Source: an uncultured archaeon
GTDB taxonomy: Archaea; Asgardarchaeota; Thorarchaeia; Thorarchaeales; Thorarchaeaceae
NCBI GenBank assembly: GCA_964558645.1
Contig: CAZLEV010000002.1
Location: forward strand, 320,001-384,000
Reading direction: 5' to 3'
Length of the DNA: 64,000 nt
Positions within the stretch are counted from its first letter, which is position 1. Every line of letters starts with the position of its first letter. The notes below the pieces were generated by a model that worked only from the letters and a program-made list of their open reading frames with translations, had not been told where the DNA came from and did no database searches. Shown piece by piece: positions 35,305 through 39,348 of the stretch. Both the position numbers and the translations under genes were made by a program.

Positions 35305-36147
35305 TTGATGGAAATCAGGCCGATGGAGAAGAAAGATATTCCTTTTGCAGTGGGGCTGACAACCTCAGAGGGCTGGTCAAGCATTCCTTTGGATTTTGAG
35401 GCTCTTGTGAGTTATCATCCCACTGCTGCGTTTGTGGCTGAGAGAAGAAGCGAGAGACTCGGCATGGTGAGTGCAGTCTCATACGGCTCTTTTGGATTCA
35501 TAGGGAATCTGATAGTAGAGAAGGAGCAGCGAAAAAGAGGGATAGGAACCGACCTGATGAACCATGGAATAGACCACTTAGAACGGCTTGGCAATGCGAG
35601 TATCTTCCTTGATGCCGTGCAAGAAGCTCAGCCTCTCTATCAACAGCTGGGCTTCAGACGCCTCTGCGAGTCTATGCGCTTTAGTGGCTGCATCCAGTGC
35701 AAACAGGACAGGAGTACAAGAGTCATCCAGAACCAAGACACTACCTCCATCTTCAACATGGACAGGAGAGCCTTTGGAGCTGACAGGAGCTTCTTCCTTA
35801 TGAATACTCTACAGCATCATCGTAGTACCTGCAAAGTAGCAGTTGATGATAAGGGAGTGAGAGGATACTGCCTAGCCGTCCAAACTCCGGACTGGCTGAA
35901 GATTGGGCCTCTCATAGTTGAAGAGGACGCCGATGTTGTTGGAAATCTGTTGAGAGCGCTGCTTGAAGACTGGAAGACTGCACGAGTAAAGGTTGGTGTC
36001 CTAGAGGAGAACACCGAGGCAGTCAAGCTCTACCGAAGTATTGGGCTTCAAGAAGCATCTCCGTCGATTCGGATGATAAGAGGCGAACAAGTCCCTGAGA
36101 GAAAACACGGTAACGAGTTTGCCATTGGTTCGCCTGCAAAGGGGTAG
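35305..36147 (+). CDS. tandem-GNAT acetyltransferase
   Basis: IGNLIV..EQRKRGIG, LYQQLGF, FGADR, KIGPL, C-term SPAKG. Confidence 0.88.
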   Translation: MMEIRPMEKKDIPFAVGLTTSEGWSSIPLDFEALVSYHPTAAFVAERRSERLGMVSAVSYGSFGFIGNLIVEKEQRKRGIGTDLMNHGIDHLERLGNASIFLDAVQEAQPLYQQLGFRRLCESMRFSGCIQCKQDRSTRVIQNQDTTSIFNMDRRAFGADRSFFLMNTLQHHRSTCKVAVDDKGVRGYCLAVQTPDWLKIGPLIVEEDADVVGNLLRALLEDWKTARVKVGVLEENTEAVKLYRSIGLQEASPSIRMIRGEQVPERKHGNEFAIGSPAKG

Positions 36148-36399
36148 CAGACAGAGAGTAACCAACAGAACAGAAGCTTGGAGTATCGCAGCTCGAACAG
36201 TCAGCTACAGTAACGAGCAACATAGCTGAAACTGAAAGGCAGACAGACCTGAACAGATCCGTGGTCTCGGAGATTCGTTCAGATGCCATTGTGCAGAAGT
36301 ATCAGTCTACTATCCAGGATTGGCCAGTTCGCAGCGAACAGCGGGCAGATCCCATCATCGGTATCAGTGAGAATTAGCAGAAAATATTGATAGAAGTAC

Positions 36400-36522
36400 T
36401 CAAGTGGCTTCCCACGCGAGTACTTCTTCGCGGGTGATTATGTCTTCATGACGTTCTGAGGGAGAGCCGTGCTCTTCTTGGGCAAATGCTCTCATTTGAT
36501 CAATATCGTTATTCAAGGTCAT
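36400..36522 (-). CDS. small peptide 4 (MTLNNDIDQMRAFAQEEHGSPSERHEDIITREEVLAWEAT)
   Basis: ATG directly follows peptide 3 stop; N-term MTLNND resembles peptide 3 MTTNND; lacks the C-terminal motif; alternative TTG start at 36516. Confidence 0.4.
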   Translation of the reverse strand: MTLNNDIDQMRAFAQEEHGSPSERHEDIITREEVLAWEAT

Positions 36523-36615
36523 CTACCTGTATAGATACGAGTAAGCAAGCGCCCGTGTTGACACTTCCATTCTATCCTTCTTTGATCCAGTTACACAGTC
36601 ATTGTTGGTGGTCAA
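36523..36615 (-). CDS. small peptide 3 (MTTNNDCVTGSKKDRMEVSTRALAYSYLYR)
   Basis: TTG start 8 nt after GGAGG; shared C-terminal motif. Confidence 0.7.
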   Translation of the reverse strand: MTTNNDCVTGSKKDRMEVSTRALAYSYLYR

Positions 36616-36620
36616 TTCAT

Positions 36621-36719
36621 TTACCTCCTGTATGCAAATGCATAGCCTACAGCCTCAGTTGAAACAGCTCTGACTCTGTTCATCTTTGCGTCGGACTCGT
36701 TTCTTGTGAAATATGCCAA
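36621..36719 (-). CDS. small peptide 2 (MAYFTRNESDAKMNRVRAVSTEAVGYAFAYRR)
   Basis: TTG start 9 nt after GGAGG; shared C-terminal motif with synonymous substitutions relative to peptide 1. Confidence 0.75.
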   Translation of the reverse strand: MAYFTRNESDAKMNRVRAVSTEAVGYAFAYRR

Positions 36720-36725
36720 CTACTA

Positions 36726-36830
36726 CTACCTCCGGTATACATAGGCGTAGGCAACAGCCTCGGCCTTCATCATTCGCGAGTCCAGATTCTTTCCAAGGGA
36801 TTCCTTTCTAGTGTTCTTTGCTAATGCCAT
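36726..36830 (-). CDS. small peptide 1 (MALAKNTRKESLGKNLDSRMMKAEAVAYAYVYRR)
   Basis: ATG 6 nt after GGTGA RBS, downstream of TATA box; shared C-terminal motif. Confidence 0.78.
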   Translation of the reverse strand: MALAKNTRKESLGKNLDSRMMKAEAVAYAYVYRR

Positions 36831-36845
36831 TGTTTTTCACCGTTT

Positions 36846-36910
36846 TAGTTTGTCAAACAAACTATTCTTACAGTATTAGTTGTGTACCTTTACCAATATA
36901 AAGGTTTGCC
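36846..36910 (-). promoter_or_regulatory. promoter (TTTATA at 36902-36897) and palindromic operator-like site for the peptide array
   Basis: TAGTTTGT-caa-ACAAACTA (36846-36864) perfect 8-bp inverted repeat between TATA box and RBS. Confidence 0.6.
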
Positions 36911-37393
36911 TTCCAAACTATATATGCCTATTTTGGTGTATCTGATGCACTTTAAGCATGTTGTGCATTTATGCATGGAACTGAACCTTGAACTGTCTGC
37001 AACCCCACAATCAATTAGACGTTCCAAGCACTATGTGAATCATCAGCACTCTCTGTCGCGCATCAGACTTGAGAGTGACAGAGATTTCGACTCGTCACGA
37101 AATGACACTACTCCACAGAACTGTCTAGATGTGCAAGAAGGGCGGAATCAGTTTGGTCTAGGATCAGCTTCTTCGCAGAGTGGCTTGCGATTGAGAACCA
37201 ACACCACTTAGGTCGTGCCGCCCTCCCAGATGCAAGGGAGGAGGACATTCACGTATTGCCCTTCAAGATATGGTTTATCGAATCAACTGGTAGGTGCTAG
37301 ATAGTTTTATACGCAAACGTTTATATTAGAAGCTGCAGACTTATACAGCTGTACAGAGGGTTGTTCTGTAGTAGTTCCAGCGGTGAGATGTGA

Positions 37394-38143
37394 ATGAATG
37401 AAGAAGAAATCACCGACTCGCTAAAGAGCGCGGATGAGATTGAGTTCTACGACAAGGGAAAAATCCAGAACGAGCTCATATTTATCACGCATGATGATAA
37501 GATGCAGGCTCTAGACGACCCTGTCCGGTTAACCATAGTCACCGTTCTTCGCAAAGGCGTCCCTGACACCCTTACCACAAAGAGGGTAGATGAGAAAACA
37601 GGGGATACAATCATACGACAACGCGAAGTGCAGCGTCATGCACTATCTGTAGTTGAAATAGTCAAGATGTCACAGGAACATGCCGATGTGGAAGAGATAA
37701 CAAAGAACCAAGTCTATCACCATCTTCCAAAGCTTGAAGACGCCGGTCTGGTTGTGAAATATTGCACAGCAAGAACTGGGAAGCGAACTACGGACTATTA
37801 TCGACGTACAGCCAAGGGCTTTGTGATTGCTGCCGGCTTTCTATCAGCTGACAAGAAGCAGCGAGAAAATAAATTGGAACTGCTCGTTGAGAGACTCGAC
37901 AAGGTTTTCGGGGTAGAACTCTCCAAGGAGGAGGCTCAGGAAGTGGAGCGCCTCATAAGAGAGGAATGGGAGATTGAAGCCAAGGGACGGTCCAAAGTTG
38001 CAAACATGATTCGCGGGGACGTTGTGGACAGCGACGTTCTCGACCTGTACGGTTACCTTGTCGATTTGTGGTCCCTAAAGGATGAGCGGCTTCTTGAGAT
38101 CAAGGAGAAGCTACGAGCCATAGTCTTCTCTGACAGCGAGTGA
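37394..38143 (+). CDS. winged helix-turn-helix (ArsR-like) transcriptional regulator
   Basis: ALDDPVRLTI, NQVYHHLPKLEDAGLV, DYYRRTAK; GGTGA RBS. Confidence 0.82.
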   Translation: MNEEEITDSLKSADEIEFYDKGKIQNELIFITHDDKMQALDDPVRLTIVTVLRKGVPDTLTTKRVDEKTGDTIIRQREVQRHALSVVEIVKMSQEHADVEEITKNQVYHHLPKLEDAGLVVKYCTARTGKRTTDYYRRTAKGFVIAAGFLSADKKQRENKLELLVERLDKVFGVELSKEEAQEVERLIREEWEIEAKGRSKVANMIRGDVVDSDVLDLYGYLVDLWSLKDERLLEIKEKLRAIVFSDSE

Positions 38144-38192: not shown

Positions 38193-38429
38193 TCAGCATT
38201 CAGCGCATATATTCGTCTGTGTTTCAAGAATGCCCGGAATAGCCTTCAGCTTTTCCGAAAGGAACCGCCCCATATCCTCCTTACTCTTGAATTCTCCTTT
38301 GATAATTATATCATAGGCCCCAAAGAGGATGAAGGCTTCCAAGGTTTCATCAAGACTCTTGATTTTATCAAGAATCTTCTTGTTTCTATCAGGTCCGACC
38401 TTGAGCAGGATGTAGGCATATATAGGCAT
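38193..38429 (-). CDS. stand-alone Lrp/AsnC ligand-binding domain protein
   Basis: AYILLKV, LFGAYDIIIK, IPGILETQT. Confidence 0.85.
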   Translation of the reverse strand: MPIYAYILLKVGPDRNKKILDKIKSLDETLEAFILFGAYDIIIKGEFKSKEDMGRFLSEKLKAIPGILETQTNICAEC

Positions 38430-38505: not shown

Positions 38506-38877
38506 TCACATGATGCCCTTGAGTGCAAGGGCGGTCATCTCAAGGTCTATGATTGCCAAGGCGGGAACCGCACTTCCATCAACCCAAGCAATGACCCATG
38601 TGTCGCCGATGACCTGCGCCATCATCAAATGTCCTTTCTTATCACCTGCAGTTCCGGCATAACGATTTTCATCGTCTATCACGGTGCTGTATTCGGTGTC
38701 ACCCAGTGTGATGTGCGATCCGGTCCTCAAGGAGTCACGAATCTGTTCAATCTCGCCTACCAGGTTCCAGTTGGATGTCTGCCATATTACCGTTGAGTCG
38801 GTACTCACTGCAAACGCTTGGAATTTCGAGTTGTTGTGGTATAGAGAGTTCCAAGCCTTGTCGATAGTTGACTCCAA
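38506..38877 (-). CDS. Asgard-type profilin (paralog 2)
   Basis: IWQTSNW, ITLGDTEY, KKGHLMM, VIAWV pattern resembling Asgard profilins; paralogous to the adjacent gene. Confidence 0.65.
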   Translation of the reverse strand: MESTIDKAWNSLYHNNSKFQAFAVSTDSTVIWQTSNWNLVGEIEQIRDSLRTGSHITLGDTEYSTVIDDENRYAGTAGDKKGHLMMAQVIGDTWVIAWVDGSAVPALAIIDLEMTALALKGIM

Positions 38878-38967
38878 GTTTCATCCCCAGGGGATATTAT
38901 GTTCAGTATTGAAGGGAATTGGAAACGCATTCCACGAGAAGGAATCTAGCCCGAGAAGCACTCGAAA

Positions 38968-39348
38968 CTAGATTTTCCCTTTGAGGGCCTTGGCTGCACG
39001 ATCTACGTCAACGTAGATCCCATCAGGTGATGCATTGGGGTCAGCCCATGCGACCACAAACTTCTCACCCTCAATCTTCGCCAACACAAGGATACCATTC
39101 CCAGAAACGCTTCGAGCAACCAAGCTGTCTGGCGTTGTCCTGAGTGTGCTATATTTGACTTGGTTCTGAACCACCGAAGTGGCATTGTTCTTGACAGCCG
39201 AACCTAGGGCTGCAGCGTCCTCTGCTAGGTCCCAATTGTCGCTCTGCCATAACACGTTACCTGATGTGGTTATTACACCGAAGGCCTGAACCATCTCTTT
39301 CGAGTCGTTGTATGCTTGCGTATATGCTTCCATAACTGGATCTGCCAT
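38968..39348 (-). CDS. Asgard-type profilin
   Basis: 126 aa; GVI...G.VLWQSDNW, VKYSTL, SVSGNGILV, VAWADP..P pattern as in Loki/Thor profilins; GGTGA RBS. Confidence 0.75.
   Translation of the reverse strand: MADPVMEAYTQAYNDSKEMVQAFGVITTSGNVLWQSDNWDLAEDAAALGSAVKNNATSVVQNQVKYSTLRTTPDSLVARSVSGNGILVLAKIEGEKFVVAWADPNASPDGIYVDVDRAAKALKGKI

Follow-up and report, generated by a model that had tools for sequence, protein, structure and literature searches.

Tandem tyrosine-stripe micropeptide genes of Thorarchaeaceae form a multi-copy family genomically coupled to a family of major facilitator superfamily transporters

In this work we are presenting a computational analysis of four short, head-to-tail open reading frames (ORFs), P1 to P4, encoded on the minus strand of a 64,000-nucleotide stretch of DNA from an uncultured Asgard archaeon of the family Thorarchaeaceae (assembly GCA_964558645.1, contig CAZLEV010000002.1, positions 320,001 to 384,000 of the forward strand), which in its full length is referred to below as the window. 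The array is located between a gene of a GNAT protein (35305-36147, plus strand) and the winged-helix regulator gene listed in Table 1. We found that the four ORFs are real small-protein genes, that together they make up a compact promoter-to-terminator micro-operon of translationally chained cistrons, and that the peptide family which they represent is multi-copy, specific to one family of Thorarchaeota (Thorarchaeaceae) and genomically coupled to a family of major facilitator superfamily (MFS) transporters. As to their function, the reading which we favour, with a probability of about 0.5, is that the peptides are trans-acting small proteins and co-regulated partners of the MFS system, either as its cargo or cargo precursor, or in association with the pump. 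We know of no small-protein family that has been characterised in Asgard archaea, and literature searches returned neither such a family nor anything on the peptide family described here.

The array had been proposed in a first-pass annotation made from the letters of the window, and its four ORFs, the C-termini quoted there for P1 to P3, as well as the GGTGA ribosome-binding site and the TATA box upstream of P1, were all found where that annotation had placed them (Table 1). Its codon comparison of the P1 and P2 ends, which differ by five silent changes (stop codon included) and three conservative ones, is accurate, and the selection at the peptide level which had been deduced from it is borne out by the following results. 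Two congeneric genomes carry the region at 86% and 81% DNA identity to the window, and in three congeneric genomes P1 to P4 are open, with no indel or frame break and with conserved stop codons. The TTG start of P2 is kept in three congeners, its N-terminus being fast-evolving and its C-terminal motif retained, while P3 differs from the counterpart at locus L003 at 2, 5 and 15 first, second and third codon positions, respectively. The ratio of nonsynonymous to synonymous changes (dN/dS), calculated by the Nei-Gojobori method for within-genus pairs pooled from five genera, was 0.31 for the first peptides of the arrays, 0.40 for the last peptides and 0.41 for the P4 class, versus 0.85-1.85 when the reading frame was shifted (both frames, all classes; 0.90 and 1.17 for the P4 class).

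Signals of translation are equally consistent over the family. Shine-Dalgarno-like matches of at least 4 nt were noticed before 59 of 65 family ORFs, compared with 17% of random positions, and before 22 of 23 first peptides. The terminal Arg codon is AGG in 64% of family cases versus 21% in neighbouring long genes, and the terminal Arg residues are largely explained by this, because the codons embed the ribosome-binding site of the next cistron. Equivalents of P3, which starts with TTG in the window, start with ATG in other genera. With respect to transcription, for which the first-pass annotation had pointed to metatranscriptomes, assembled contigs from two salt-lake studies span 36433-36797 at 97-99% identity and bridge the P1-P2-P3 and P2-P3-P4 junctions; the support given by these contigs is weak because such libraries can contain DNA. 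The RNA runs were picked for holding the cassette, so the missing cover of the GNAT gene and of intergenic DNA carries no weight.

Homologous small ORFs, which the first-pass annotation expected in related genomes, were detected by a six-frame profile search in 80 of the 86 genomes of the window's family at E≤0.1, mostly at several loci each, and over hundreds of copies the frames stay open at a length of 35-37 codons. At E≤0.001 the profile matched 64 of 76 family genomes versus none of 224 genomes of 29 other Asgard families, the latter result doubling as a negative control for the profile, on which P1 and P2 score 55.8 and 50.8 bits, respectively. Among 1.84 billion representative proteins the sole true relatives are stand-alone peptides of 29-46 aa, either 'hypothetical protein' or nameless at source, and the exact sequence of P1 exists in a public protein collection as an unnamed small protein. 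Three long profile matches (P0001, P0003 and P0010) turned out to be repeat proteins and were judged spurious. A natural fusion of P3 and P4 (P0018, 70 aa) was also rejected, its DNA having a TAG codon which the gene caller of the European Nucleotide Archive (ENA) read as Gln. The call, on an ENA contig of 697 nt (L039), concerns the TAG between the last Tyr-motif peptide and the P4-class ORF and is an artefact that could mislead searches. None of P1-P4 gave a match in Pfam, NCBIfam or PHROGs, nor in PADLOC at E≤1, and no usable look-alike of P1 was obtained from the ESM Atlas.

The first-pass annotation had described four peptides with a common aromatic motif at the C-terminus. This holds for P1-P3; P4 has no Tyr motif and is an acidic peptide of a different class rather than a fourth paralogue. 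Elsewhere an array has between one and four Tyr-motif peptides, followed by a P4-class peptide with the ending (T/C)xEEVLx(W/L)E(A/C)T and finally by a hairpin, and the P4-class peptide is present alike in the two cassette types (A and B) defined below. The first peptides have 33-36 aa, a mean net charge of +4.7 and a mean grand average of hydropathy (GRAVY) of -0.66, the corresponding values being 26-30 aa, +6.3 and -0.82 for the last peptides, and 29-41 aa, -2.2 and -1.02 for the P4 class. Conservation of the Tyr-motif peptides is highest in the last 13 residues and the middle part is variable; the N-terminal MALAxNxRN block is also conserved. AlphaFold2 supplied with the family alignment modelled P1 as one helix of residues 7-33, with a mean predicted local distance difference test score (pLDDT) of 70 overall and about 85 in the conserved block (residues 21-30). 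In this model A25, Y28, A29 and Y32 fall on a single face as an Ala/Tyr stripe (AxxYAxxY), which is the only apolar element of the peptides, the helix being hydrophilic overall, and we infer from it a helical fold of P1-P3. Co-folding of P1 with P4, both with alignments, scored 0.00 and carries no weight either way. An HbYX proteasome-docking tail was considered and rejected: P3 ends with L-Y-R, but P1 and P2 end with Y-R-R, other family members with YNR, YSPR, TVVR or FRR, and the register of Tyr to the C-terminus is not kept.

Table 1. Features of the micro-operon (minus strand, 36393-36918) and its divergent regulator gene, in positions of the window
Feature	Position	Strand	Description
P1	36726..36830	-	ATG start; 34-aa cationic Tyr-stripe peptide of the first-peptide class, MALAKNTR...AYAYVYRR
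P2	36621..36719	-	TTG start; 32-aa Tyr-stripe peptide; ribosome-binding site GGAGGT supplied by the final P1 codons
P3	36523..36615	-	TTG start; 30-aa Tyr-stripe peptide of the last-peptide class, C-terminus LYR
P4	36400..36522	-	ATG start; 40-aa acidic peptide of a separate class, conserved C-terminus TREEVLAWEAT
Upstream palindrome GTTTG-N5-CAAAC	36904..36918	-	Abuts the TATA box; detected as a repeat; putative operator
TATA box TTTATATT	36895..36902	-	Read from the sequence; presumed promoter element
Downstream palindrome GTTTG-N5-CAAAC	36848..36862	-	About 32 nt past the TATA box, over the expected start-site region; presumed repressor-binding site
Shine-Dalgarno GGTGA	36837..36841	-	6 nt ahead of the P1 ATG
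15-bp stem-loop, GAAG loop	36393..36426	-	Encloses the P4 stop; followed by a T-rich tract; likely 3' end/terminator
Divergent winged-helix regulator	37394..38143	+	HTH_20/PadR-like, 249 aa; Pfam match; candidate binder of the GTTTG-N5-CAAAC sites

Within the unit, P1 and P2 lie in one frame with TAG-TAG-TAG between them, of which only the first TAG is conserved in congeners; P3 and P4 also lie in one frame, the TAG stop of P3 immediately preceding the ATG of P4. The cistrons are chained, their terminal Arg codons (AGG AGG TAA, AGG TAG) forming the Shine-Dalgarno sequence of the next one. The context ...AAACCTTTATAT... of the TATA box is invariant across three congeners and retained in other genera, and the promoter block is 91-94% identical between the window and two congeners, which is the level of P1 and above that of P2-P4. 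The palindrome beside the TATA box is conserved in the type-A cassettes of other genera; in the downstream one the spacer alone varies among congeners, and this second palindrome recurs in L004, L024 and the MFS-linked loci of genus g4. The stem-loop at the other end has 77.5% of cells paired over 24 cassettes, compared with 35-48% in slid controls, and shows covariation between a synonymous third position of a Val codon and a base of the 3' untranslated region, at a level reached by 3 of 500 shuffles; T-rich tracts follow the hairpin in many cassette copies. Rfam covariance models gave no match at E≤1 over 35500-38000. In a more distant congener the conserved block reaches from about 36920 to about 36375 only, with unrelated flanks, so the promoter-to-hairpin stretch behaves as a unit. 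The Shine-Dalgarno sites, the conserved palindromes, the syntenic regulator and the empty database searches together support what the first-pass annotation had called a regulated micropeptide operon of an unrecognised family; the winged helix-turn-helix (wHTH) regulator would bind the palindromes and the unit would be read as a single transcript.

The locus of the window, which we term type A, is syntenic across the family. The divergent wHTH regulator, whose synteny the first-pass annotation had singled out for checking, is found in 20 of 30 peptide loci of many genera, and a Zn-ribbon/UbiE-like methyltransferase gene is convergent in 14 type-A loci, the GNAT gene standing in its place in the window's genus. 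The genome to which the window belongs contains five cassettes. The four besides the window's (C2:276.7 kb, C8, C10 and C26) have another promoter module, GTCACA-N3-TGTGAC followed by a GTGAC repeat and then a TATA box (type B). In genomes sampled without bias, each type-B copy has the exact operator some 80 nt ahead of its first peptide ORF, and the copies are near-identical within one genome. In genome G010 the repeat runs from the operator to the 3' arm of the hairpin (about 385 nt) between unrelated flanks, and these limits argue for its cassette nature. Viral contigs gave no match to the type-B promoter pattern. Locus L003 (G002:C217), of a congener, retains the GNAT neighbour, and the promoter side of its cassette abuts a voltage-gated chloride-channel gene, not the regulator. 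The start region of the regulator has its match some 11 kb off on that contig, a situation pointing to insertion or rearrangement exactly at the edge of the cassette. A type-B-like operator, GTCACATCTTGTGAC, with a TATA box also occurs in the window's own genome (C9:53334-55006, L043) between a gene of a 104-aa HTH_45 winged-helix protein, a candidate for the type-B regulator, and one of a 414-aa bactofilin-domain protein.

The transporter family coupled to the peptides is expanded, with matches in 52 of the 61 genomes searched and up to nine per genome. In 20 of the 30 best MFS loci, which represent seven genera, one to three Tyr-peptide genes are located directly upstream on the same strand; in these loci a single operator with its TATA box precedes the first peptide, the MFS gene has neither of its own, and no P4-class ORF is present. 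A different MFS gene, of the DHA3/MFS_3 efflux type, follows a peptide gene by 8 nt at L028, and the MFS genes of L042 and L028, both adjoining peptide genes, belong to different families. In the window's own genome the type-B module also precedes an MFS gene (C1:136039-137490) and a bactofilin-domain gene. The two promoter types meet in genus g4, where a type-B promoter stands before peptide Y1 and is followed by a type-A promoter before peptide Y2, an upstream ORF (uORF) and the MFS gene; since this type-A promoter has palindromes like those of the window, the stacked promoters tie the window's cassette type to the same transporter system. The sister Asgard family f12 has the MFS family in 19 of 19 genomes and no Tyr peptides. 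Its MFS gene has retained the operator and has, as divergent partner, a gene of an ArsR-HTH/GyrI-like regulator (L079:2-763, minus strand), a ligand-sensing type which is the usual partner of inducible efflux pumps; in the window's own genome we found only weak HTH-level matches to this regulator and no close orthologue. As the operator and the pump occur in f12 without the peptides, the operator-pump regulon is the older part, to which the peptides were added within Thorarchaeaceae.

In genus g3 type-A cassettes begin with an ORF for a third class of small peptides, ending ...SL(Y/F)YDY(C/H)xWR (L008:1843-1929, minus strand), and in genus g7 a related form is the product of a uORF that overlaps the start codon of the MFS gene (L056, L058 and L063). 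Occurring in cassettes and in an MFS leader, this class is a further thread between the two. In three genomes of one genus the MFS gene forms a tandem pair, the second paralogue of which has one in-frame stop within an otherwise full-length alignment (G005:C39:45321-46727, TGA; G020:C80:20769-22175, TAG; G098:C108:4696-6102, TAG) and could be a pseudogene, a split gene or a case of recoding. Read-through of in-frame TAGs as pyrrolysine was considered and rejected, as the window's own genome (93% complete) gave no PylS match in a search whose positive controls worked, and ARAGORN finds no tRNA with a CUA anticodon in it. The same program reports 21 tRNAs in total, those with introns being probably missed; one of the 21, at 168976-169066 of one contig, is a tRNA-Sec (anticodon TCA), which makes it probable that the organism uses selenocysteine.

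Several observations concern the regulator and its surroundings. The protein encoded at 37394-38143 matches the winged-helix part of the PADLOC Csa3 models (E 1.4e-9, profile positions 139-244 of 305); the likeness is limited to the HTH domain, and no CRISPR context was seen. Adjoining the regulator gene is that of a stand-alone 78-aa AsnC/RAM ligand-binding domain protein (38193-38429, minus strand), beyond which lie two ORFs of about 125 aa (38506-39348, minus strand). The second of these (38968-39348), the one that was scanned, has a weak Profilin match (E 8.6e-4), and profilin was taken as one sign of the Thorarchaeota lineage. An ORF of about 125 aa is also found beyond the regulator in four other loci.

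According to the reading that we favour, the divergent winged-helix regulator would presumably occupy the two GTTTG-N5-CAAAC palindromes bracketing the TATA box, and the promoter would drive one short transcript with four translationally coupled cistrons, closed by the hairpin around the P4 stop. On induction, P1-P3, as cationic hydrophilic peptides (net charge about +5) for which a single helix bearing an Ala/Tyr stripe is predicted, would be made together with the transporter system, and would either leave the cell through the MFS pump, as cargo or a cargo precursor, or be soluble partners acting on the pump or together with it. In stand-alone cassettes P4 would occupy the place of the transporter gene. 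Action in trans is preferred to action in cis because the peptide genes can have promoters of their own, as in g4, because stand-alone cassettes are closed by a terminator and have a convergent gene beyond it, and because conservation spans the whole peptide, its N-terminus included. A physical or functional interaction of the peptides with the transporter is what the shared loci suggest to us.

Several points weigh against this account. The RNA support comes from assembled contigs of libraries which, as mentioned, can contain DNA. No MFS gene of the linked family is adjacent to the cassette in the window, whose connection to the transporter consists of family membership and a promoter type common with another genus. 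We know of no precedent for an MFS pump exporting an intact, hydrophilic 4-kDa peptide, so the cargo version needs processing. Of the 30 MFS loci, nine lack a peptide gene in the inspected flanks, and in another the peptide gene occurs solely downstream of the MFS gene; together with f12, the peptide-less loci imply that the pump works without peptides. The MFS family itself is unclassified, its main protein having a weak MFS_1 match and none in NCBIfam or among PDB sequences. Finally, the account assigns P4 no role, and the partner version is conjectural. A broader picture, offered tentatively since we consider it clearly less probable, is that of a lineage-specific Thorarchaeaceae peptide system in which banks of repressor-controlled micro-operons would make leaderless cationic Tyr-stripe peptides, or a small Tyr-derived product cut out of them, for export by dedicated, expanded MFS pumps; it would amount to an Asgard 'archaeocin' or signalling system without counterpart in other archaea.

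The gene order at the transporter loci also suits a role in cis, which we regard as unlikely: as leader or arrest peptides, the ORFs would pause the ribosome at their Tyr-rich Arg-Arg-stop ends, by shortage of tyrosyl-tRNA or by a small molecule in the exit tunnel, and so set translation of the downstream gene (MFS or P4). In the 20 of 30 MFS loci the pump gene does have peptide ORFs in its 5' leader, following a single promoter region, an additional uORF overlaps the MFS start codon, the strongest conservation falls in the final 13 residues beside the stop codon, the cistrons are coupled by embedded Shine-Dalgarno sequences, and the P4 stop lies within a hairpin that a terminating ribosome must open. 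Control by leader peptides is established for the bacterial mef(E)/mel and similar pumps (PMC4335068); a literature search returned no archaeal example. Were the peptide ORFs to act in this manner, they would be the first leader peptides sensed by the ribosome to control an archaeal efflux pump. What disagrees with such a role is that neither the window cassette nor any other type-A locus has a downstream target, each terminating in a hairpin with a convergent gene beyond it, and that copies are dispersed as stand-alone units with their own promoter and terminator. Tandem peptide genes can, moreover, carry separate promoters, their number varies from one to four, the N-terminal MALAxNxRN block is conserved with purifying selection over the whole length, and no alternative terminator/antiterminator pairing was found, nor any alternative pairing noticed in the g4 leader, in a search that was neither exhaustive nor systematic. 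Unlikely, too, in our estimation, is that the peptides are precursors of ribosomally synthesised and post-translationally modified peptides (RiPPs), with an unlinked maturase, e.g. an anaerobic radical-SAM enzyme or the nearby methyltransferase, modifying a Tyr-x-Tyr-x-Tyr core and the MFS pump exporting a small excised product. It would be in keeping with the peptides being short, with a conserved block at the N-terminus and a Tyr-rich one at the C-terminus, with the many precursor-like paralogues in a genome, with a transporter gene in the same operon at many loci and with the methyltransferase as a convergent neighbour in 14 type-A loci; in other organisms, small Tyr-crosslinked RiPPs that have MFS exporters are known. 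The first-pass annotation, however, saw no radical SAM, YcaO or P450 maturase in the window, and inspection of about 70 cassette loci likewise revealed none of these within 1.5-3 kb, nor any lanthipeptide or protease gene, an unlinked maturase not having been searched for genome-wide. Recurring neighbours are limited to the wHTH, methyltransferase and MFS genes, the rest being unrelated housekeeping genes; the methyltransferase is convergent and is replaced by the GNAT gene in the window's genus; and the putative core is the most conserved part, contrary to a conserved leader with a hypervariable core. A PqqA-like E-x-x-x-Y motif was rejected, as P1 and P2 have E-A-V-x-Y but the position of Glu is E, D, K, R, Q, G, N or H over the family; pqqB-E were not searched.

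The dispersal of near-identical copies would be explained by a toxin-antidote cassette, in which harmful cationic Tyr-stripe peptides (by nucleic acid or membrane binding, or aggregation) are neutralised by P4 or the pump. The basic (+5 to +6) and acidic (-2) partners are in every case encoded together, with their translation coupled, the last position is taken by either P4 or the MFS gene, promoter-to-terminator units have been copied to unrelated sites, and a palindromic operator over the promoter is common in toxin-antitoxin operons. We nevertheless consider it improbable, because P1-P4 matched no defence or toxin-antitoxin model in PADLOC, the peptides are too small for a DNA-binding domain, the same operator controls the MFS gene in the peptide-less family f12, the type-A locus is stably syntenic family-wide, unlike a mobile addiction module, and the promoter pattern gave no match in viral contigs. 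A predicted basic helix with stacked aromatics and a conserved G-A-A-G loop hairpin at the end of the same transcript would also fit peptides binding their own hairpin and thereby controlling termination or mRNA stability, in the way in which arginine-rich-motif peptides bind boxB; with peptides that are rich in Lys, Asn and Thr, not Arg, and MFS-linked operons that are devoid of this hairpin, such an activity is very improbable. Least of all do we believe that the region is a conserved RNA or promoter with fortuitous open frames. That the ORFs are very short, that P2 and P3 start with TTG in the window's genus and that the hairpin shows RNA structure under selection in part of the region would agree with it, but it is strongly disfavoured by the frame-specific dN/dS contrast, the length kept at 35-37 codons over hundreds of copies, the ATG starts in other genera with Shine-Dalgarno sites before starts, and the lack of an Rfam match.

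Small proteins are largely missing from archaeal annotation, and the present family has unusually strong comparative support, with hundreds of copies, frame-specific selection and conserved regulatory architecture. Being restricted to one Thorarchaeota family, it is a lineage marker. Its compact regulatory logic (two operators, chained coupling and the stop-enclosing hairpin) is testable in vitro, and the MFS partner turns an unknown function into testable hypotheses, namely export, pump modulation and leader control. If the peptides were secreted or sensed, they would bear on interactions of Asgard archaea with syntrophic or competing neighbours.

Compared with systems already described, the cassettes resemble most of all several kinds of bacterial small genes, each in part. 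The psm-alpha locus of Staphylococcus aureus encodes four peptides of about 21 aa, and leaderless multi-peptide bacteriocins are represented by aureocin A70 and garvicin KS. With these the Thorarchaeaceae cassettes have in common two to four head-to-tail paralogous ORFs of 20-35 aa, each with its own ribosome-binding site and no signal peptide, a predicted helix, direct control of the promoter by a transcription factor and a transporter gene often nearby. Those bacterial peptides, however, are hydrophobic or amphipathic, membrane-active and exported by ABC transporters, whereas the archaeal ones are hydrophilic (GRAVY about -0.7) and MFS-linked, and the archaeal unit further differs by its acidic fourth peptide, its stop-enclosing hairpin and the absence of sequence similarity. 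The Tyr-based precursors of RiPPs and cofactors, such as PqqA, MftA, CitA of cittilin and the fungal UstA of ustiloxin, are similar in being short precursor-like peptides with a Tyr-rich C-terminal block, many paralogues, and a methyltransferase and MFS gene nearby; unlike them, the Thorarchaeaceae peptides lack a linked maturase, do not conserve the E-x-x-x-Y of PqqA and vary least in the C-terminal block. Small modulators of transporters are known from Escherichia coli as AcrZ, SgrT, MntS and MgtS, of which SgrT and MntS are soluble; they agree with the present peptides in a size of 30-50 aa and co-regulation with a transporter, their post-translational action being a feature of the E. coli proteins, and they are single-copy, unlike the tandem, multi-copy and dispersed cassettes.

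The leaders of mef(E)/mel (PMC4335068), ermC, cmlA and fexA are likewise short ORFs in the 5' leader of an efflux-type MFS gene or, more broadly, of efflux and resistance genes, with C-terminal conservation and a downstream ribosome-binding site tightly coupled to the upstream ORF. They differ in that most Thorarchaeaceae copies, that of the window included, have no downstream gene to control, several ORFs occur in tandem, separate promoters are possible and no alternative RNA pairing was seen. Bacteria, then, already provide examples of the kind, whether as leaderless micropeptide genes arrayed in tandem next to a transporter or as uORFs preceding an efflux pump; new are the peptide family itself, the architecture of dual operators and chained Shine-Dalgarno sequences, the stop-enclosing hairpin, the dispersal in promoter-to-terminator units and the Asgard setting.

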